A stretch of 64,000 nucleotides of DNA, taken from an uncultured Candidatus Binatia bacterium (GTDB lineage: Bacteria; Desulfobacterota; Binatia; Bin18). Location: contig OZ252051.1 in assembly GCA_965247985.1 (NCBI GenBank), positions 53,953-117,952 on the forward strand. The letters are read 5' to 3'. The notes beneath the pieces are model-generated. The model searched no databases and had not been told where the DNA came from. It saw only the letters and a list, made by a program, of their open reading frames with translations. This document shows positions 1-54,833 of the stretch, one piece after another (position 1 is the stretch's first letter; each line of letters begins with the position of its first letter). Made by a program: the position numbers and the translations under genes.

Positions 1-743
1 TCCGTCAGCGCGGCGGCGGCAATCGGGACATACATACCCCAATTCACCAGACGCTGACCCGGCGCAACCGCTCCGTCCAAGCCTGGCACAAAATAAAAAA
101 TACCGTGCCCGCCCGGATAGCCCAAACAGCGCACGCCGCTTGCGAGCGGCTGTGATTCCTCAAGTTCCTCTTCAAGCAGGAAGCCCCGCCACAAGACATA
201 GCCGGCATACCTCAGGGCGATATCGGGGAAGAGGCTACGCCGGCCCAGCGAGGTGTAGCCATCCGCACAGACCACTAGGTCAAATACAGACGCGGACCCA
301 TCGGCCAACTCCACCCGGACCGTTCCGTTGGGTTGCTGGTGTAAGGCCACGGCTCGCTGCCCCGAGTGATACACCATATCCGGCACGCGTTTGCGCAGGT
401 TTCTATACAACCCACCCCAGTTGAGCAAAGCCAAATTTGCGGGCTGGTCCCAGGCAAGATAGCCGTAGCGGCGCTCTTTTTCCGTGCGCCAGATACGCGT
501 GAAGGCATGACCGGCGAAGAAGGGGGTATCAGCATCAACGAGGTCGCGTTCAATGAAGGTGTCCATGACCGAGGGCGGAACGCCGATACCCGCTCCTCTA
601 TCCTTCAAGGTGTCGCCCGTGCGCTCTAAAAGCGTGACCTCGCAGCCTGACCGCAGCAGTTCGATCGCCGTAGTACAGCCGGCAATTGACCCTCCGATGA
701 TGCCGACTCGGAGTCCCTGTGTGAGTGTAGTGTTCGCTGACAT
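1..743 (-). CDS. FAD-dependent monooxygenase (flavoprotein hydroxylase family); C-terminus cut by window edge
   Basis: Minus-strand frame checked codon by codon: open from ATG 743-741 down to position 1. It is absent from the ORF track only because it has no in-window stop. N-terminal dinucleotide-binding motif GIIGGSIAGCTTA and later DLVVCADGYTSLGRR motif. GGAGGA Shine-Dalgarno 6 nt upstream of the ATG. Confidence 0.6.
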   Translation of the reverse strand, partial: MSANTTLTQGLRVGIIGGSIAGCTTAIELLRSGCEVTLLERTGDTLKDRGAGIGVPPSVMDTFIERDLVDADTPFFAGHAFTRIWRTEKERRYGYLAWDQPANLALLNWGGLYRNLRKRVPDMVYHSGQRAVALHQQPNGTVRVELADGSASVFDLVVCADGYTSLGRRSLFPDIALRYAGYVLWRGFLLEEELEESQPLASGVRCLGYPGGHGIFYFVPGLDGAVAPGQRLVNWGMYVPIAAAALT

Positions 744-14040: not shown

Positions 14041-14113
14041 GATTAGCAAAGTGTAATCCGACAAGGACGGGAGGTCGGGTTACGCCTACGGCTAACCCGA
14101 CCTACAAGGCGAC
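14041..14113. repeat. nested palindromic element GTAGGTCGGATTA...TAATCCGAC / GGTCGGGTTA-N10-TAACCCGACCTAC (two adjacent hairpins)
   Basis: Seen directly in the intergenic spacer between two tandem minus-strand LLM genes. A diverged second copy lies at 51015-51047. Confidence 0.45.
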
Positions 14114-38553: not shown

Positions 38554-41316
38554 GTGAACGGCGTGCCTGGATTCCTCCTTATCAGCCTGATTCTCCTGCC
38601 CTTACTCGGCTCGCTGGTGGCCTGGCCGGAGCGGTGGCGCCGGCGTTTGGCGCCGGCCTATAGCCTCGTTCCGATTCTTCAACTGCTGATCGTCAGCTCA
38701 TTCTGGACAACGGTCCAGGCCGGAGAGGGGATTCAGTGCTCCTGGCCGTGGGCGCCGAGCCTGGGGCTGTATCTGAGTTTCAGTCTGGACGGCCTGAGCT
38801 GGCTCTTCACCGGTCTGATCTCGGGTGTGGGCGTGTTCGTTTTTGTCTATGCCGCGTTCTACATGGCTGACGACCCCACGCTGTCACGCCTCTACCGTTT
38901 GCTGCTCTTGTTTAACGCCGCCATGATGGGCGTTGTGCTGGCCGACAACCTGGTCTTATTGCTGGTTTTCTGGGAGTTGACGAGCGTCTCGTCTTTTCTG
39001 CTCATCGGTTTTCGCTCCCATCGGGCGGCGGCGTGTGAAGGCGCGAGCAAGGCGTTTGGTCTGACGGCGATTGGCGGCCTGGTCATGCTGTTCGGCATTT
39101 TGGCTGTGTATGCCGAGCACGGGACCTTCGAACTGTCGGTCCTGATTGCCAACTCCACCCCCATATCGACGGCGGCGGGACTGTGCTTCCTGGCTGCTGC
39201 TTTCACCAAGTCGGCTCAGTTTCCGTTCCATATCTGGCTGCCGTCGGCCATGGAGGCACCCACCCCGGTGAGCGCCTATCTGCATGCCGCCACCATGGTC
39301 AAAGCCGGGCTGTATCTGATTGCTCGGCTGACACCGTTATTTGCGGACGACCCCACCTGGTCGGCCACGGTGACCAGTGTGGGTACGGTCACCCTGGTGT
39401 GGGGAGGCGTGTTAGCCTGTAAGCAGGTTGATCTCAAAGCCTTGCTGGCTAACTCAACCGTGAGCCAACTGGGTTTGATCGTCCTCCTCCTTGGCCTGCA
39501 AACCGAAATCGCGCTCTTTGCGGCCGTCCTGCATATTCTCAACCACGCGGCGTTCAAGGGCGCGCTGTTTCTCACGGCCGGGACGGTCGAGCACGAAGCG
39601 GGGACACGCGACCTGCGTCAACTTGGCGGCCTGCGTCCCCTCATGCCGGTCTTAACTGCGGCGGCGACATTGGCTTCACTGTCCATGGCCGGCCTGCCGC
39701 CCTTAGGCGGCTTCCTGAGTAAAGAATTATTCTATGAGGGCGTCCTCGAAGCGGACCTGCTGCTAACGATACTGGTCGTCGCCGCCAGTTGTCTGACTTT
39801 TTTGTATTCTTTCATTTTCTTTCACGGGACGTTTTTCGCCCCGGCCTTACATCCACACCAGCAACATCATTCCTCCCCTCATGCTGAACAGCACTCCACG
39901 CTCGGTCTGATTGCACCTATTGTCGTTCTGAGCGGCTTGGCCGTGCTATTCGGGCTCGTCCCCAGTCTGGCTGAAGCACTGGTTACCCCAGCTTTTACCG
40001 TTATTCACGGTGCTCCACCCCAACTTCATCTTGCCTTGTGGCACGGCCTGACGCCGGCCCTGGGGTTGAGTGCGCTGACGGTTGTCCTTGGTGGCAGCGC
40101 CTTTTTGCTGCGGCAGCGTTTTCTTGGGGCCATACGCGAGCGGCAGGCCGCGTATTCGTTCAACCGGCTGTACGCAGACAGTCTGACCGGCTTCACCCGC
40201 CTCTTTCAATGGACACGGGCGCTGTACATGACCGGCTCGGTGACCGACTATGTCCGCTATCTCCTGGTCGCTCTCATTGTAGGGCTCAGTCTTCCATTAT
40301 GGCATTTCTTTGCGGTAACGCCGCTCCGGGTGGACATGGGGAACATGGTTCTCCCGGAATACTATGAGCTGGGACTGGCCGGGCTGATGGCGGGTGCCGG
40401 GGTCATGTGCTGCCGGGTCTACTCGCGTATTGTCCTCGTGCTGACGCTCAGCCTGGTCGGCGCGCTCATGGCGATTTTCTTCGTGCTCTTCAGCGCGCCG
40501 GACTTGGCCTTAACCCAGGTCCTGGTAGAAGCGGTCGGCCTCGTCCTGTTTCTCCTGGTCCTGCGTTACTTCTCGATCATGGTCGTTGTCCCTCAGCCAC
40601 ACACCTCATATGCGCGCGGGCTCAATATCGGGATTAGTGTGGGTACAGGTCTCCTGGTCAGCGGGCTGCTTTTTGCTGCTACTGTCGGCCCCTCGCTCCC
40701 CTCCCCTATTCCGTCCTATTATCTGTCGAACAGTCATCTCCTGGCCGGTGGACAAAACGTAGTCAACGTGATCCTGGTTGATTTTCGTGGCTTTGATACC
40801 ATGGGTGAGATTACGGTGTTTAGCGTTGCCGTCTTTGGTGTCTTTGCCATGGTTGAGCTGGGCGTCCGTGGGCAGCGCCCCTTGGGAACCATTCTTGTCT
40901 CCTTCCCCTCGCCTATTCTCCAGTCGTTTGCCCGGCTCACCCTCCATCTCATGCTGGTCTTTGCCATTTATTTGTTGTTGCGCGGCCACAATGCGCCGGG
41001 TGGCGGGTTTATCGCCGGTGTGCTCACCGCAGTGGCGATTACGTTTCAGATGATAGCTTTTCATGTGGAATCCTTCTCACAGGACATGCCCTGGAATCCG
41101 CTCCGCATGGTCGTGGTCGGACTCCTGCTTGCCGCCGGTACCGGTCTTGGCTCTTTACTCGTTGGCTATCCGTTTCTGACCAGTGCGATTGGCCATTATA
41201 CCTTTCCGCTGCTCGGTGAGGTTGAACTTGTCACCGCCATGGGTTTTGACATTGGTGTATACTTGGTCGTGGTCGGGACCTCGCTTGGCATTATTCGCAC
41301 TATTGCCGAGGATTGA
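38554..41316 (+). CDS. mrpA: Na+/H+ antiporter Mrp/Mnh subunit A (fused MrpA+MrpB, NuoL-like)
   Basis: 920-aa polytopic membrane protein with an NuoL/MnhA core and a C-terminal MrpB-like extension. GTG start. Confidence 0.9.
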
Positions 41317-41319
41317 CAC

Positions 41320-41652
41320 GTGGAATTCGTTATTATCAGCGTGATCGGCATCCTGTTTGGCTGTGGGACGTATTTGATCTTGCAGAAGCATTTATTGCGG
41401 GTGATCGTGGGCTTGTCGTTGTACTCACACGGGGCCAATCTCGCGCTCATGGTCTCAGGAGGTCTGAATCAGGGCAATCCTCCTCTGCTCACGACCGAGG
41501 CGCCGTACGTTGATCCGCTCCCCCAGGCGTTAGTCTTAACCGCGATTGTGATCAGTTTTGGTATGACCGCATTTGCAACGGTCTTAGCCTTTCGGGTCAG
41601 ACAAGTGTACGGGTCGGATGCAGTTGATGAATTAGCTGGGGGAGAAGAGTGA
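41320..41652 (+). CDS. mrpC: Mrp antiporter subunit C (NuoK-like)
   Basis: 110 aa, 3 TM. 3-bp spacer after mrpA. Confidence 0.85.
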   Translation: MEFVIISVIGILFGCGTYLILQKHLLRVIVGLSLYSHGANLALMVSGGLNQGNPPLLTTEAPYVDPLPQALVLTAIVISFGMTAFATVLAFRVRQVYGSDAVDELAGGEE

Positions 41653-41686
41653 GGGGGCTCGGGGGAGACTTCCCCCGTGAAAACAC

Positions 41687-43192
41687 ATGATGCCTCCAGA
41701 CTTGTTCGTCCTCTTTATTATGGGTCCGGTTGTCACGGCAGCCTTTTTAGCAGCTTTTCATAAACGGAACGTATTTCAGCGTGGGGTGAGTCTCAGCGTC
41801 AGTCTGGGGCTGTGGGGGCTGTCCGTCGTGGGTCTGCTCTCTCTGTTGCAAGACGGCCAGCAGGGGATTGTCGTGCTGCGGATGGGCAACTGGGCCGCGC
41901 CTTACGGCATTATCCTGGTTGCCGACGTACTCAGTATGACTATGGTCGTCCTGACCATGACGGTTGCGGTTGCCGTGGTGGCCTTCTCGCTGCGAACGGT
42001 TGAGCAAGCGTATCAGGAGCATTTTTATTACCCACTCTTCTTTATTCTCATTATGGGTGTGAACGGTGCCTTTCTCACTGGAGATTTATTCAATCTGTTT
42101 GTCTTTTTTGAAGTGTTGCTGATCGCGTCGTTTGCGCTCCTAGCCCTTGGCTCACAACCGGGCCAACTGCGAGAGACGGTCAAATACGTGGTTATTAACC
42201 TGATCGCCTCGACCTTTTTTCTGATCAGCCTGGCCGTGCTGTATCGAACGATGGGCACGCTCAATATGGCGGACCTGGCCTATAAGATTCAGATGACGTC
42301 CGGGGAGCTGGACCCGACGCTGACAATTTTGGCCCTGGTCTTCTTGTTTGTGTTTGGCACCAAGGCGGCAATCTTTCCGCTCTATTTTTGGCTGCCCGGA
42401 CCGTATTTCCAGCCCGCAGCGGGATTGAGTGCGTTTTTTGGTGGGATTCTGACCAAGGTGGGCGTGTATGCCATCTTCCGCACATTTACGCTGATCTTCC
42501 GTCATGACCCATCCATGACCCATGAACTCCTGCTTATTCTGGCTGCCCTGACTATATTACTGGGCGTCTTTGGCGCGTTGTCCCAGATGGATATGAAGCG
42601 CATTTTGTCCTACCACATCATCAGTCAGATCGGCTATCTCATTCTGGGTATAGGCTTGTTTACGCCTCAGGCGTTGGCCGGCGCCCTCTTTTATATGGTG
42701 CCGTACGTACTGGCGAAGTCGGCACTCTTCTTGATTGCTGGCGTCGTGCAGGAGGCAACCGGCTCGACCCACCTCAAAGCGGTGGGTGGTCTGCAATCCC
42801 ACTCAATACCCTTGAGTATTCTCTTTTTACTGGCAGCATTGAGCCTTGCCGGTATTCCTCCGTTAGCTGGGTTTTTTAGTAAGTTTATCGTATTACAGGC
42901 AGGTATGGAGATTGGTCGCTACGGCTATGTCGGCATTGGGCTCTTGGGTGGCCTCCTGACTTTGGCCTCTATGCTCAAAATCTGGAATGGAATCTTCTGG
43001 GGCGAAGAAGTAGGCGACCGCCGGCCAGTGTCGCTCCAACCCCTCTTCCCCGGTGTTGTCCTGCTCGTCTTTTTCATTGTTGGGATCGGGTTGTTTCCAG
43101 GTGTACTGTACAGCGTGACTAAGGTGGCCGCCGCACAAGTCTATGATCCGCGTGTATATATTGCTGCGGTCTTGGGACCAGACGTCTTTTGA
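41687..43192 (+). CDS. mrpD: Mrp antiporter subunit D (NuoN/NuoM-like)
   Basis: 501-aa polytopic protein of the proton-pumping antiporter family. Confidence 0.9.
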   Translation: MMPPDLFVLFIMGPVVTAAFLAAFHKRNVFQRGVSLSVSLGLWGLSVVGLLSLLQDGQQGIVVLRMGNWAAPYGIILVADVLSMTMVVLTMTVAVAVVAFSLRTVEQAYQEHFYYPLFFILIMGVNGAFLTGDLFNLFVFFEVLLIASFALLALGSQPGQLRETVKYVVINLIASTFFLISLAVLYRTMGTLNMADLAYKIQMTSGELDPTLTILALVFLFVFGTKAAIFPLYFWLPGPYFQPAAGLSAFFGGILTKVGVYAIFRTFTLIFRHDPSMTHELLLILAALTILLGVFGALSQMDMKRILSYHIISQIGYLILGIGLFTPQALAGALFYMVPYVLAKSALFLIAGVVQEATGSTHLKAVGGLQSHSIPLSILFLLAALSLAGIPPLAGFFSKFIVLQAGMEIGRYGYVGIGLLGGLLTLASMLKIWNGIFWGEEVGDRRPVSLQPLFPGVVLLVFFIVGIGLFPGVLYSVTKVAAAQVYDPRVYIAAVLGPDVF

Positions 43193-43204
43193 ATGCGGAG
43201 TTGA

Positions 43205-43699
43205 TTGAGAGCCCTCATTATGGTGACTCGTCTTTTTTTCAATATCATTCTGGCTTTCGTCTGGTGCTTGCTGCAAGGCGAGATATCCTTGCGTCAGTTC
43301 ATGATTGGCTCTCTGGTCGGCCTCTTGGCCATGCTGTTCTTCCCACGCTCCTTTCACCAAGAGCGGCGCTATTTCCGTAAGGTCACGCTGAGCGTGCAAC
43401 TCGTATTCTTCTTTGTGAAGGAACTCCTGATTGCCAATTGGACGGTGGTCAGACAGGTCCTGGCTCCTGAACTCAAAATACAGTCCGGCATTGTTGCCTA
43501 CCCATTGTCATTGCAGAACGATGTCCTGATTACCTTGCTGGCAAATATGATTACCCTGACGCCGGGAACGCTATCGGTAGAGGTTGCTCCAGATCGGCAG
43601 TTTTTATTTATTCACTTTCTTGATGTCGATGATGTGGAGGAAGAAATCCGCATCATTAAAGACGGATTTGAACACTATCTCCTGCTCATTGCCCAATGA
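43205..43699 (+). CDS. mrpE: Mrp antiporter subunit E
   Basis: 164 aa. Operon position and MnhE-like N-terminus. Confidence 0.75.
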   Translation: MRALIMVTRLFFNIILAFVWCLLQGEISLRQFMIGSLVGLLAMLFFPRSFHQERRYFRKVTLSVQLVFFFVKELLIANWTVVRQVLAPELKIQSGIVAYPLSLQNDVLITLLANMITLTPGTLSVEVAPDRQFLFIHFLDVDDVEEEIRIIKDGFEHYLLLIAQ

Positions 43700-50976: not shown

Positions 50977-51014
50977 TGTCTCATTCTCCTTTCTTCATCT
51001 GTTCAGCGAGTCCC

Positions 51015-51047
51015 GTAGGTCGGATGAGCCGCAGGCGTAATCCGACA
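51015..51047. repeat. GTAGGTCGGAT-N13-TAATCCGACA palindromic element, second copy
   Basis: Shares both arms with the element at 14041-14070. In the 80-bp spacer between tandem minus-strand genes. Confidence 0.4.
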
Positions 51048-51057
51048 CCGCTGGCTA

Positions 51058-51888
51058 TCAATCCGACAGTCGTTGTCGGTATGCGGTCAGGTCCTCGACG
51101 GTCACACCATCCGGCGGAACGAGTTGATAATGCTTTTCCGAAACTACTCTCACGTCGCCACTCGTCCGCTCAAACTCAAAGAGTACAATCAGGTTGTCCC
51201 GCATGGATTGCACTCCAACGGGTCGGCATATAAGGGACGGGAGTCTATAAGCACACAACTCCATGTCTTGCTCAATCTGGACTCTATTGAGCATGTCCCT
51301 TTCTCCCTTGGCTTGTACAGGTACGACGTAATGAGAGCCGCCCTTGTCCACGCCCACGTATATCTCATCCGTCTCTACTTGGCCCATGTTAGGCACAGTC
51401 GTCCTGAGATGGTTTTGGAGCGAATAGCAGGCTATCCCCAAGAAGATGTCAATCAATCGGTTGTAACGAAGGCGCGTCAGGACAGCCTGCTCATCGTTGA
51501 ACGCATATTTCTCGATTATTCCGGGAGTTGAGTCTGGGACCTTAGTCACCGCAAGGTTCGGGTTAGGAATGAGCGGCCTGTCGGCCACCAGGACAAATTG
51601 GTATCGACTCCGCCCTGCGGGACGAATGATCCAGGTTTCCCCAGCGGGAGCCTCGGCAAGAATGCTGGACGGGAGCGCCTTTCGGTATCTGAAGCTGTAG
51701 ACCACGTCGCCCAGATTCTTGGGAAGCTGGATATTCAGTTCAGATGCGAACGTGACGATATCTTCTCGCTCGAATGCTACCGCTCGTTGTCCAGATTGAT
51801 ACTTGGCTTGGAAAATCGCCTCAATGATCGCTGCATAGCGGCTCTGGGACGGAATAGTGTACCCCCTCTCGGTCAGTGACCCGGCCAT
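51058..51888 (-). CDS. hypothetical protein; candidate restriction endonuclease partner of the adjacent DNA methyltransferase
   Basis: 276 aa. Start overlaps the MTase stop by 16 nt. Possible degenerate PD-(D/E)xK-like patch ...TDEIYVGVDKGGSHYVVPVQAKGE.... No known family recognised. Confidence 0.4.
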   Translation of the reverse strand: MAGSLTERGYTIPSQSRYAAIIEAIFQAKYQSGQRAVAFEREDIVTFASELNIQLPKNLGDVVYSFRYRKALPSSILAEAPAGETWIIRPAGRSRYQFVLVADRPLIPNPNLAVTKVPDSTPGIIEKYAFNDEQAVLTRLRYNRLIDIFLGIACYSLQNHLRTTVPNMGQVETDEIYVGVDKGGSHYVVPVQAKGERDMLNRVQIEQDMELCAYRLPSLICRPVGVQSMRDNLIVLFEFERTSGDVRVVSEKHYQLVPPDGVTVEDLTAYRQRLSD

Positions 51889-53222
51889 TCGAGTAAAACA
51901 ACTTCTTCCCGAAGCTGCTCGCCGGTCGCAGTTGACAGCCGGGTCCGAAACAAGTCAATGCCGGTGACGGTGTAGTTCAACGATTGCGCCAGTTCGGCAA
52001 GCAGCCGTCCCGTACGAATCATGACCCGCAGATACGACGCCTGGTCGCCCACCACATAAGCGAGTCGCGCCCCCGGTTTGAGGACGGGCCGGAGGGAAGC
52101 CAGATGGCGTACCATACCGCCAAAGTATAGCCGAGTGACGCGCGGATAGAGCCGCTCGAAGCCGGAGGTTTTTCCCAACTCAACCCGACGTTGCTCAATG
52201 GCCTCGGCGATATTCCGTATTTCGACGTTGTCTGCAACCTCAAGATCATCCGTATCCGACTTGTACACACCTCTCGTATTGGATCTGACCAAGTCCTGCT
52301 TCAGTGACCGCAATTCCTGTTTGTCTCGTATCAATCCGAGAATGACAGATTCCAAGCGCGTCGTGCGCGTATAGTCCTTCTCGTTTGGGTAGGGCGGGGA
52401 CGTGATGACTGCATCGACCGATTGCGGCTCCAGAATCCGATCAATCTGTCGGGAGTCGGCCTTGATGACGTGAGCGGTAACGTCAGCCCGGTCTCCGACG
52501 AGACCAAAGTCACTTGCCATGGACCGGACACGGTCAAGCCAGGCCTCGAAGACTGGAGCGTCCTCCTTAATCCTCCCAACCCCCACTTCCGGGCCGAACT
52601 TCAGGTTGCCGATACGCTGTACCAAAGCGCTGGCCAGTGCGAGACGGCCGTATTGCTGCACCTGCCGGTCGCCCTGTCGGTCAATCGTGTCCAGCAACAG
52701 CAAGGTCTTATGCAGGGGAAGCGGACTGATTGAGTTCTTTAATAGCAATTTCAACTGCTCAGGACGCAGTTCGGCCAGCGGTGGATGTTCCGGTTCAGCG
52801 GCGGTAAACAGCGGGGAGTCGGTCCATTCATCCATGCCCTGTTGTTCCAGAGTCTTTCTCGCTGACGTGACGACCTGCCCGGCATAGTCCAAAAGTCTGG
52901 TGCGATTGACCGACCAATCGACTTTCACCGAGCTTGCGAAGTGTGCCATAGGGTTCGACTCGATTCCGACACTCCGAATGCCGAGTTTCTTACACTCAAC
53001 CAACGTGGTGCCGGTTCCACAGAAGGGGTCGAGAACCGTCTCGGAGGGGCAAACGCCAAATCGTTCAAGATAGTCACGGACCAAGTGGGGTGGGAATGAC
53101 AGCACAAACCGATACCAGTCATGAACCGGCCGGTCTTCGGGCCGGAGCTTGTTCTGGTCATTCCGGGCACCGCTCGTATTGGGAAGCCTCTCAGTCGCTA
53201 TTGGCATCGGTATTGAGTTCAA
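51873..53222 (-). CDS. site-specific DNA amino-methyltransferase (N4-cytosine or N6-adenine; alpha-type motif order I...IV)
   Basis: Motif I LDPFCGTGTT near the N-terminus. Motif IV ITSPPYP ~210 aa later. 449 aa. Confidence 0.8.
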   Translation of the reverse strand: MNSIPMPIATERLPNTSGARNDQNKLRPEDRPVHDWYRFVLSFPPHLVRDYLERFGVCPSETVLDPFCGTGTTLVECKKLGIRSVGIESNPMAHFASSVKVDWSVNRTRLLDYAGQVVTSARKTLEQQGMDEWTDSPLFTAAEPEHPPLAELRPEQLKLLLKNSISPLPLHKTLLLLDTIDRQGDRQVQQYGRLALASALVQRIGNLKFGPEVGVGRIKEDAPVFEAWLDRVRSMASDFGLVGDRADVTAHVIKADSRQIDRILEPQSVDAVITSPPYPNEKDYTRTTRLESVILGLIRDKQELRSLKQDLVRSNTRGVYKSDTDDLEVADNVEIRNIAEAIEQRRVELGKTSGFERLYPRVTRLYFGGMVRHLASLRPVLKPGARLAYVVGDQASYLRVMIRTGRLLAELAQSLNYTVTGIDLFRTRLSTATGEQLREEVVLLEWPGH

Positions 53223-53242
53223 CAGAGTTTTGAGGATAGCAT

Positions 53243-53593
53243 TTAGGCCAACGGAATAAACAACGACTTTCTGGGCTGGCCGTTGACCGCTCGGCTGATA
53301 TGTCCCTGGCCGGTGGTATCCTCGGCCAGAAGAATCTCGCCCGTACCCAGAACGCGCTTCGTGCCGTCACCAATCTCGATTTCGACCGCACCCTCAAGCA
53401 TGACCACATATTGCCGCCGCGGCGCGTTGTGAAAATCGAGGTCATAGTCTCCGCCCGTTTCTCGAAAGATGACGCCGGTTGCCGGAATCAGCTCAGAGAG
53501 CTGTCCCACTCCGCCACCGTCTTTGAGCGGAATCTCGACATCCTCAAAATGTGATTGGTTATCTGGACCCGTATAGATGCGGGTGACTTTCAT
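53243..53593 (-). CDS. cupin-domain protein
   Basis: Start at ATG 53593 after GGAGG. 116 aa with a cupin beta-barrel pattern. The track ORF is over-extended. Confidence 0.6.
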   Translation of the reverse strand: MKVTRIYTGPDNQSHFEDVEIPLKDGGGVGQLSELIPATGVIFRETGGDYDLDFHNAPRRQYVVMLEGAVEIEIGDGTKRVLGTGEILLAEDTTGQGHISRAVNGQPRKSLFIPLA

Positions 53594-53750
53594 GCTGGGC
53601 CTCCTTTCCACAAGCGTTCTGAACTGTATGACACAGCCCCGTTGAGTGTCAAATGATACCGGATTTTCCGACCTGGACAGGGCTAGCGCCCATGACTTAT
53701 AGTGATGCGGCTGTAATGAAAAAAGACCGGCGAAGGTAGAGGAGAACACG

Positions 53751-54833
53751 ATGCGCGCAGTAGTGATGCTGAACCATGAACTGACGGTTGAAGATATTCC
53801 CGTCCCGGAGCCCGGCCCAGGCGAAGTCCTGGTCAAAACTTTGGCCTGCGGGATTTGCGGCTCAGACCTGCACGCGCTGAAGCATACGGAGAAGCTGGTG
53901 GAAGTATCGGAGCGTTCCGGTGGGGTTTTTAATATGGACCTCAGCCGTGGAATCGTCATGGGCCATGAGTTCTGTGTCGAGGTCGTCGATCACGGGCCGA
54001 ACACACAAAAAATGCTCAAGGCCGGGACGCGCGCAGTTTCCATGCCGATCCTCATTCGGCCAAGCGGTGTCGAGACGGTCGGCTATTCAAATGACAACCC
54101 AGGCGGCTATGGGGAGTATATGCGCCTGAGTGAAAAGCTGTTGCTCGCAGTCCCGAACGGCCTGCCCACGCCCAAAGCCGCCCTGACCGAACCCATGGCG
54201 GTTGGCCTGCACGCGGTTGAAATGGCCCGCCTGGCAAAAGACGACGTACCCTTGGTCATCGGCTGCGGACCAGTCGGCCTGGCCGTTATTGCGTCGCTAC
54301 GGATGAAAGGTGTGCAGCCCATTATTGCTGCGGATTTCTCCCCCCGTCGCCGCCAACTCGCAGAAGCCGTGGGTGCGGATATTATCATTGACCCTGCCGA
54401 GCAGTCGCCGTATACCAGTTGGCAGGAAGCTGCGGTCTGGGCTGATCCGAGTACGGCTCCGCCTCAGCCGCCCTGGGCTTCCGGTCCTCCGCTACGTCCG
54501 GCAGTCATGTTCGAGTGCGTCGGCGTGCCCGGAATCATTGACCAGATTATGACCGCGGCCCCGCAAGGCACGCGGATTGTCGTCGTTGGCGTCTGCATGG
54601 AGAAGGACAGCTTTGAGCCGATGTTCGGCATCAATAAGGAACTCAATCTCCAATTCGTCTTGGGCTATAGCGGAGAAGAATACGCGTCCACGCTCCACCA
54701 TATTGCGGACGGGGCACTCATGACCGATCCGCTCATTACAGGAACGGTTGGCGTGGCAGGCGTCCCCCAGGCATTTCAGGATTTGGACTCGCCGGAACAC
54801 CACGCCAAAATTATTGTGGAACCCTGGCACTAA
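53751..54833 (+). CDS. zinc-dependent alcohol dehydrogenase (MDR) family
   Basis: CGICGSDLH catalytic-Zn motif, GHEFCVEVVDHG, Rossmann GCGPVGLAV. 360 aa. Confidence 0.85.
   Translation: MRAVVMLNHELTVEDIPVPEPGPGEVLVKTLACGICGSDLHALKHTEKLVEVSERSGGVFNMDLSRGIVMGHEFCVEVVDHGPNTQKMLKAGTRAVSMPILIRPSGVETVGYSNDNPGGYGEYMRLSEKLLLAVPNGLPTPKAALTEPMAVGLHAVEMARLAKDDVPLVIGCGPVGLAVIASLRMKGVQPIIAADFSPRRRQLAEAVGADIIIDPAEQSPYTSWQEAAVWADPSTAPPQPPWASGPPLRPAVMFECVGVPGIIDQIMTAAPQGTRIVVVGVCMEKDSFEPMFGINKELNLQFVLGYSGEEYASTLHHIADGALMTDPLITGTVGVAGVPQAFQDLDSPEHHAKIIVEPWH

Follow-up and report, generated by a model that had tools for sequence, protein, structure and literature searches.

Two overlapping genes on the reverse strand of the 64,000-nt stretch of Candidatus Binatia DNA analysed here (the window) raise the question of whether they form a type II restriction-modification (R-M) system, as the first-pass annotation had proposed, and whether the second gene encodes a restriction enzyme of a new kind. 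The upstream gene (positions 51873..53222, minus strand), defined by its ORF, profile matches and homologues, encodes a 449-aa DNA amino-methyltransferase (MTase) with alpha-type motif order. The downstream gene (51058..51888, minus strand) encodes a 276-aa protein which a PADLOC profile, homologues and an AlphaFold (AF2) model point to as a type II restriction endonuclease (REase). Profile matches, gene linkage, gene fusions and the structure model all support the proposal, and on these grounds the two genes very probably make a type II R-M pair composed of an MTase and a restriction endonuclease. Two features expected of this class were found: adjacent MTase and REase genes (with PADLOC MTase_II and REase_II matches, respectively) and joint movement of the two genes.

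Layout and mobility of the cassette

The two genes, in the order M then R and followed by a short 3′ tail, make up a mobile cassette of ∼2.2 kb (51004..53235, minus strand) whose edges were determined by blastn. In comparison with five Candidatus Binatia loci (L002 and L008–L011) identity of 88–90% was observed only across window positions 53235/53222..51055/51004, and the flanks of the cassette have no similarity to these five loci. The homology to relatives runs from ∼13 nt ahead of the MTase start to a point shortly past the REase gene. The first-pass annotation had described an overlap of 16 nt between the MTase stop and the start of the next gene; the overlap is indeed exactly 16 nt (51873..51888, minus strand), and its sequence, ATGGCCGGGTCACTGA, is the start of the 276-aa REase ORF (ATG) and contains the TGA stop of the MTase. 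The same −16 overlap is present in L002, L008, L009, L059 and L068; in other relatives the M and R genes overlap by 13, 4 or 1 nt or are separated by a small gap. A third gene, such as a small helix-turn-helix controller gene (C-protein), was not found within the cassette homology; the 115-aa ORF located upstream has no Pfam match and is absent beside the cassette in relatives.

The MTase and the REase each have thousands of homologues at 55–93% identity, an indication that both ORFs are real genes. The linkage between them was assessed in both directions. With the REase as the starting point, 80 genome loci spanning more than 15 phyla were compared, and 78 of them have an alpha-type MTase as the immediate upstream neighbour; with the MTase as the starting point, 67 of the 77 loci compared, all from metagenomes, have the REase as the next gene downstream. 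The possibility of an orphan MTase conserved without the partner, raised in the first-pass annotation, finds little support in these counts, as the MTase is rarely solitary (7 of the 77 loci have no REase homologue at all, and three more have a truncated or divergent REase). At five loci the two genes are fused in frame, with fusion-length proteins of 612–735 aa, and one genome carries two copies of the cassette that are 96.8% identical. Judged from these sequence comparisons, the M-R cassette is an ordinary mobile one, widespread in many bacterial phyla. Cultured bacteria are among the carriers, for example Calothrix sp. NIES-4105, Leptolyngbyaceae UHCC 1019 and Paracoccus seriniphilus DSM 14827.

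A REP-like hairpin, GTCGGAT-N14-ATCCGAC (51019..51046, no strand assigned; RNA fold energy −19.9 kcal/mol), is situated 12 nt past the REase stop. Copies of this hairpin flank the cassette in L002, three are present in L008 and one in L010, and a second copy within the window (14074–14101) has its stem kept by compensatory changes. Probably the hairpin ends or stabilises the transcript, or else it serves as a hotspot for insertions. Elsewhere in the window, a strong AT skew at 38–45 kb was considered as an oddity and turned out to be simply an Mrp antiporter operon.

Does the copy in the window work? In the homology with the five Binatia loci we found no conserved promoter inside the cassette, and since this homology extends no further than ∼13 nt ahead of the start codon, expression would depend on flanking DNA. 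There is also no obvious Shine-Dalgarno sequence at the start codon of either the MTase or the REase. These observations, along with the 7 solitary MTases and 2 truncated REases among the 77 MTase loci of relatives, could be taken to suggest that the copy is a remnant, either decaying or silent, with one or both genes unexpressed or inactive, and that the locus is an orphan methyltransferase or has no function. We regard such decay as improbable, given that both ORFs are full length with all conserved motifs intact, that five related genomes have intact M-R pairs 88–92% identical to this one and that the 16-nt overlap is preserved.

The restriction endonuclease: family and predicted fold

According to the first-pass annotation, the 276-aa protein had no recognisable family. 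This view had to be abandoned: the PADLOC-DB REase_II model PDLC03404, which represents a REBASE-derived family, matches the protein over its full length (E-value 1.2e-110, 366.9 bits, aa 15–271 aligned with positions 3–259 of the 260 in the profile), although the REase has no Pfam, NCBIfam or PDB sequence matches, and no member of the family has a solved structure. The matching family is a nuclease family, so the concern that the partner could belong to a non-nuclease one is answered. The PDLC03404 model comes without an enzyme name or recognition sequence. In public records the protein goes by ‘endonuclease’ or ‘hypothetical protein’ and nothing more specific, and plasmid annotations are equally uninformative. 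In the literature on pB1019, on PaeR7I/XhoI and on the Orlowski–Bujnicki classification (supplements aside) we found no usable sequence link to the REase. The homologues of the REase fall into 1163 clusters at 50% identity and are 55–90% identical across more than 15 phyla. Few type II restriction enzyme families of environmental bacteria are as abundant or as conserved as this one, and such strong conservation is unusual for a restriction enzyme. Therefore, the suggestion of a novel restriction endonuclease stands with respect to restriction endonuclease and falls with respect to novelty, the family being very large, widespread and modelled by PADLOC.

The AF2 model of the REase (pLDDT 94) has two parts. 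The N-terminal winged-helix-like domain (∼aa 14–102; 51583..51849, minus strand) is the presumed DNA-recognition module; the C-terminal PD-(D/E)XK nuclease core (∼aa 114–257; 51118..51549, minus strand) has the alpha-beta-beta-beta-alpha-beta core fold of the superfamily. The weak PD-(D/E)xK-like patch noticed earlier proved to be the conserved motif E172-x-D174…Q192-x-K194. The putative catalytic strands with this motif, E172-x-D174…Q192-A-K194 (51307..51375, minus strand), are near-invariant in A1, an alignment of 51 REase sequences in which the numbering is one lower (the start codon was omitted from the query). Residues D174 and K194 are nearly invariant, and E172 and E133 are further conserved acids. 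The latter residue (51490..51492, minus strand), also near-invariant in A1, belongs to a conserved DEQ motif and is located in helix 132–141 of the model, on the helix ahead of the beta-sheet; E133 is a candidate for the third acidic residue. Position 192, canonically D or E, is occupied by Q in this protein; family members have either Q (the majority) or E there. To judge by this conservation, the variant catalytic motif ExD…QxK is plausible. The REase belongs to the PD-(D/E)XK restriction endonucleases, in a large family that PADLOC already models.

Several known proteins can be compared with the REase. SdaI, a type IIP enzyme combining a winged-helix domain with a PD-(D/E)XK domain, has no detectable sequence similarity to it and only weak structural similarity; the ExD…QxK motif is a further difference from SdaI-like type IIP enzymes. 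The closest solved structures are not those of restriction enzymes but of resolvases, Cas4, NucS and Dna2. Combined with the uninformative names in public records, this would fit a PD-(D/E)XK protein with some other role in DNA processing (repair or recombination) that happens to be encoded beside an orphan MTase. Small stand-alone minimal PD-(D/E)XK nucleases such as the archaeal Holliday junction resolvase Hjc and YraN/UPF0102, which are structure-specific or of unknown function, have neither a winged-helix domain nor an MTase partner, unlike the REase here. We find a repair or recombination role highly implausible in view of the full-length match to a REBASE-derived type II REase profile, the near-obligate linkage to a DNA MTase in both directions and the in-frame M-R fusions, and also in view of what is observed in a sister branch of the family.

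Homologous REases of this sister branch, ∼50% identical to the REase here over 93% of its length, are encoded on ColE1-type plasmids of Klebsiella (e.g. K. pneumoniae pB1019, NC_019988) and Salmonella (e.g. S. enterica p724-3), on a Paracoccus plasmid and in Cryobacterium and S. meliloti. Like the cassette in the window, the sister-branch pairs are compact mobile cassettes with M followed by R and a short overlap (8 nt there); the partner there is a C5-cytosine MTase of 416–441 aa (with a vsr gene alongside in Paracoccus), whereas here it is an amino-MTase with SPPY. The family thus has two unrelated MTase classes as partners with the M-then-R order kept, which argues against a role in repair, as does the gene content of the ColE1 plasmids: these are 4–5 kb in size, and next to the M-R pair they carry nothing but genes for mobilisation, a small ORF for replication initiation and short hypothetical ORFs. 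A plasmid of comparable size, pCS36-4CPA, was considered as a carrier of the same system and was rejected, as it holds a different, EcoO109I-like system. Gene sizes and MTase types brought up HgiBI/HgiEI, Sau96I, AvaII, XhoI/PaeR7I and PvuI/XorII as conceivable counterparts of the pair, and we claim none of these. With the REase taken as a restriction enzyme, there is a slim chance that its architecture (a winged helix with ExD…QxK) recognises a site, or recognises it by a mode, not described for any characterised enzyme.

The methyltransferase and the methylated base

The length of the MTase, 449 aa, is counted from a TTG start at position 53222; counted from a conserved ATG at 53207 it would be 444 aa, the length most often seen among the MTase homologues. 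The public MTase call P0325 is 100% identical, and the gene limits given here correct a public call of the MTase that is truncated to 358 aa. As the first-pass annotation had stated, FCGTGTT is present near the N terminus and SPPY ∼210 aa later: motif I (SAM binding), FCGTGTT, occupies aa 67–73 (53004..53024, minus strand) and motif IV (catalytic), SPPY, occupies aa 275–278 (52389..52400, minus strand), 208 aa apart. Both are conserved among homologues from the loci, with DPF(C/A/S)G(T/A/S)G found in 79 of 83 and SPPY in 81 of 83. The order of motifs is that of alpha-class exocyclic-amino MTases, i.e. motifs X and I, a target-recognition region and then motif IV ∼200 aa downstream. The match to Pfam PF01555 covers only aa 38–91, which align with the motif X/I segment in the C-terminal part of the profile (161–213 of 221), as expected for the permuted (alpha) motif order. 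The PADLOC MTase_II model PDLC03224 matches the MTase with E-value 2.2e-40, and the homologues are 57–93% identical. Solved MTases yielded no full-length similarity; only the motif-I region aligns (e.g. 2zie, E-value 1.9e-6).

Which base does the enzyme methylate? Motif IV of the form S-P-P-Y/F is typical of N4-cytosine MTases, and D/N-P-P-Y/F of N6-adenine MTases. M.BamHI and M.PvuII are N4-cytosine MTases that have SPP(Y/F) as motif IV and serve as the protective half of type II systems. The MTase here has in common with them an FxGxG motif I, the SPPY motif IV and the protective role; M.PvuII is a beta-type permutation, whereas the MTase here has the alpha-type order. The pairing of the sister branch with C5-cytosine MTases implies that it is cytosine methylation that blocks this REase family. 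SPPY together with the sister branch suggests N4-methylcytosine as the product of the MTase, an assignment that we consider rather likely. It is less easy to accept that the enzyme makes N6-methyladenine, a change that would leave the rest of the R-M reading as it is. The base specificity of amino-MTases is not reliably readable from motif IV alone, PF01555 spans both N6 and N4 enzymes, and adenine MTases such as CcrM account for the weak NCBIfam matches of the MTase. Still, the near-universal SPPY among the homologues and the C5-cytosine partners of the sister REase branch, once accompanied by vsr, make adenine methylation unlikely.

Candidate recognition sites and proposed mode of action

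Counts of palindromes in hosts were inspected for traces of the recognition site. CTCGAG, the XhoI/PaeR7I-type site, does not occur in the window (15–19 occurrences expected) and is observed 6 times versus 48 expected in the Binatia loci and the window combined, all of these being carriers of the system; in several hosts CTCGAG counts are normal. No palindrome is more depleted than CAGCTG, the PvuII-type site, in either host set (0.35 and 0.30), both of which consist of carriers only. CTGCAG, GTCGAC and GGGCCC are depleted as well. In the methylome literature mentioning CTCGAG we found no link to the REase family. CTCGAG and CAGCTG are no more than leads for the recognition sequence.

In the mechanism that we propose, the cassette would be a functional-looking M-then-R operon. 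The product of the first gene is predicted to be a SAM-dependent exocyclic-amino DNA methyltransferase with motifs X and I in its N-terminal part, a variable middle region of ∼200 aa presumably used for target recognition and SPPY in the C-terminal half. Most likely it would methylate cytosine at N4 within a short palindrome and in this way protect the host DNA. The REase start, lying 16 nt before the MTase stop, makes translational coupling probable, and through it the REase may be produced in a set ratio to the MTase. With its winged-helix-like DNA-binding domain and its PD-(D/E)XK core, in which E133, E172, D174, Q192 and K194 are the likely metal-binding or catalytic residues, the REase would probably act as a homodimer and cut the unmethylated site in incoming DNA.

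For the locus itself, the analysis assigns a function to a gene publicly named only ‘endonuclease’ or ‘hypothetical protein’, with little significance beyond annotation. The family, being widespread and well conserved and having partners from two MTase classes, is a reasonable target for a Pfam/NCBIfam model and for structural work. The recognition site, if learned, would be of practical value for transforming Candidatus Binatia and other hosts, and the swapping between m4C-type and m5C-type MTases could make this REase family a model for R-M re-pairing.

A methyltransferase gene overlapping an endonuclease gene

The methyltransferase (MTase) gene on the minus strand at 51873..53222 encodes a protein of 449 aa if translation begins at TTG; the conserved ATG at position 53207 would instead yield 444 aa, the commonest length among homologues. 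The motifs FCGTGTT (aa 67–73) and SPPY (aa 275–278), which the first-pass annotation had placed at the N terminus and ~210 aa later, are both present with a spacing of 208 residues, and SPPY is kept in 81 of 83 homologues. The Pfam profile PF01555 (N6_N4_Mtase) matches aa 38–91 only, through its C-terminal part (positions 161–213 of 221, E-value 5.7e-14), as is expected when motifs X and I are N-terminal and motif IV lies far downstream, the alpha-type order. PADLOC assigned the protein to type II methyltransferase models (best PDLC03224, E-value 2.2e-40), and its PDB sequence matches cover the motif-I region only. To judge from the sequence, the protein is an alpha-type DNA amino-methyltransferase. 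Two public annotations, on contigs of 4.48 and 4.40 Mb, give the MTase as 358 aa, 80% of the query (P0325, 100% identical, and P0380, 91%). This length implies a start near Met92 with loss of motifs X and I; neither entry has a precomputed Pfam hit, and the shorter call looks like a gene-calling artefact.

The MTase gene ends with ...GAATGGCCGGGTCACTGA, and the ATG of the restriction endonuclease (REase) gene (51058..51888, minus strand, 276 aa) lies inside that string, so that the overlap is exactly the 16 nt noted before; the first-pass annotation is right in all that it read directly from the sequence. Searching from the REase (tblastn), we found an alpha-type MTase immediately upstream in 78 of 80 genome loci, both exceptions being contig ends that cut the locus; gene calls added four more contexts with the same pair among unrelated neighbours. 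The rival possibility, an orphan MTase, was tested without bias by searching from the MTase, which gave 77 metagenome loci with sufficient downstream sequence. The REase follows immediately in 67, and the MTase stands without a REase homologue in seven, where unrelated genes come next; the remaining three have a truncated REase (two loci) or a divergent, convergently placed member of the REase family (one locus). This last protein (L139, 2517–3359, minus strand) is ~30% identical and carries EAK, not QAK.

The two genes always lie close together: they overlap by 16, 13, 4 or 1 nt or are separated by at most ~30 nt, and in five loci (L043, L047, L051, L057 and L061) a single reading frame runs through both. 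An HMMER scan likewise contained fusion-length proteins of 612–735 aa with a C-terminal REase domain (P0148, P0154, P0157, P0163 and P0192); such fusions would represent a single-chain, type IIC-like form derived from the module. By every testable criterion, the sequence evidence supports the earlier proposal that MTase and REase form a type II restriction–modification (R-M) system.

A large endonuclease family with a predicted PD-(D/E)XK core

The first-pass annotation had regarded the REase as family-less and possibly novel. Its sequence has no match in Pfam, NCBIfam or PDB sequence searches; in PADLOC, aa 15–271 align end-to-end with positions 3–259 of 260 of PDLC03404, a type II restriction enzyme (E-value 1.2e-110), which contradicts that view. 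A word-indexed search gave at least 8,000 homologues, the best 120 at 66–93% identity; HMMER, run exhaustively over representatives at 50% identity, yielded 1,163 clusters (E-value ≤ 0.001), and scanning one genome for each GTDB species gave at least 592 loci. Among the matches listed in this last scan the closest are Candidatus Binatia MAGs (86–90% identity). Other hosts include Latescibacterota, Dehalococcoidia and other Chloroflexota, Nitrospinota, Spirochaetia, Verrucomicrobiota, Acidobacteriota, Planctomycetota, Armatimonadota, cyanobacteria (including Calothrix sp. NIES-4105), Chlorobaculum and Burkholderiales. This is a very large family, and its conservation from phylum to phylum is unusually high. 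Its members are publicly named only ‘endonuclease’ or ‘hypothetical protein’; it is without a Pfam or NCBIfam model, a solved structure or a public name, and PADLOC already models it from REBASE.

An AlphaFold2 model built from an alignment of 51 REase sequences (mean pLDDT 94, pTM 0.88) has an N-terminal helix/strand domain (~aa 14–102) and a C-terminal alpha/beta domain (~aa 114–257). Structure comparison likens the N-terminal part to winged-helix domains (MCM8 WH, E2F-4), with SdaI and FokI further down the list. Foldseek with the model returned nothing at E-value ≤ 0.001; its matches of better probability are, as in the first comparison, Cas4-family and NucS proteins. Near-invariant alignment columns are D132-E133-Q134 in a helix, E172-x-D174 in one strand and Q192-A-K194 in the next, position 192 being Q or E in the family (we use the verified protein numbering; alignment and model numbers are lower by one, as their query lacked the start codon). 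The weak PD-(D/E)xK-like patch noted at first is real and corresponds to the conserved core E172-x-D174/Q192-A-K194. The model predicts a winged-helix plus PD-(D/E)XK enzyme, with a variant active site as its putative catalytic core.

Mobility and surroundings of the cassette

In blastn comparison with five Binatia loci, 88–90% identity extends from window position 53235/53222 to 51055/51004, and the flanks match nothing. A Binatia chromosome, OZ242288.1, carries two cassette copies ~127 kb apart, with 96.8% identity across 2.2 kb; the flanking contexts of these copies (L010 and L011) differ. Such boundaries point to a mobile cassette, in which there is no third gene, controller protein or integrase and whose GC content is that of its surroundings. 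Since the homology begins only ~13 nt ahead of the MTase start codon, no promoter travels with the cassette. The ORF upstream (53243–53959, minus strand, mechanically 238 aa) probably begins at an internal Met and is then ~115 aa long (53243–53590); the shorter product has no Pfam match and is absent from relatives' loci. The ORF stops 18 nt ahead of the TTG of the MTase, so that the cassette may be driven by read-through from this ORF; at 53652–53623 (minus strand) there is a sigma-70-like site.

Several cassettes are followed, just 3′ of the REase stop, by a REP-like extragenic hairpin, GTCGGAT-N14-ATCCGAC and then CTACGGGAC; in L002 copies lie on both flanks. Copies occur in the window at 51019–51046 and 14074–14101, the second keeping its stem by compensatory changes (GTCGGGT...ACCCGAC), and in relatives' loci L002 (6441–6482 and 8829–8881), L008 (4434–4469, 7508–7541 and 8022–8056) and L010 (10823–10870). 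The hairpins are possible markers of an insertion hotspot, or may serve as transcript-end elements.

The window locus is not a defence island: it sits among genes of metabolism (a family III CoA-transferase, amidohydrolases and an alcohol-dehydrogenase-like ORF). A strong AT skew of −0.2 to −0.38 over ~7 kb at 38554–43699 is an ordinary feature, due to an Mrp-type Na+/H+ antiporter operon whose membrane proteins (Proton_antipo_M, MnhB, MbhD/E, MNHE) use T-rich codons. Relatives' cassettes lie near defence-like genes of a kind not neighbouring the window cassette, such as an AAA_15/AAA_21 ATPase with a 200-aa partner (L002, 10716–12493) and an Eco29kI-family restriction enzyme gene (L006, 10222–10729).

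Candidate recognition sites and exchange of methyltransferases

CTCGAG is absent from the 64-kb window (15 expected by a fourth-order Markov model, 19 by base composition), one of only five missing hexamers, the other four of which contain CTAG; the window and five Binatia loci together have 6 vs 48 expected. Strongly depleted in the window, too, are CTGCAG (2 vs 18 expected) and GTCGAC (3 vs 16.5). Taken with the absence of CTCGAG, this suggests that several hexamers of this genome are, or once were, under restriction pressure. Among system-carrying hosts, in which alone ratios were computed, CAGCTG is the most depleted palindrome in both independent sets (0.35 and 0.30), CTCGAG standing at 0.43 and 0.50; the number of CTCGAG sites is normal in several hosts (e.g. 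L012, L013, L015, L025 and L054). CTCGAG and CAGCTG are leads only.

One sister branch of the REase family shares ~50% identity with the window protein and sits downstream of C5-cytosine methyltransferases, which are 52–55% identical to each other over their full length. Members of this branch occur on small ColE1-type plasmids in Klebsiella, Salmonella, Escherichia, Enterobacter and Citrobacter (e.g. pB1019 and p724-3), on S. meliloti KH46 pSymA and on one plasmid each of Cryobacterium and Paracoccus, with a vsr gene ahead of the C5 MTase in Paracoccus. The REase family thus alternates between two MTase classes, C5-cytosine and SPPY amino. The SPPY motif is linked to N4-cytosine specificity in the literature on MTase motifs. 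From the pairing of one REase family with either class we infer protection of the site by cytosine methylation, with N4-methylcytosine as the product of the window MTase. A large, conserved and unnamed REase family with two MTase classes and natural M-R fusions is mildly notable, and would not surprise a specialist.
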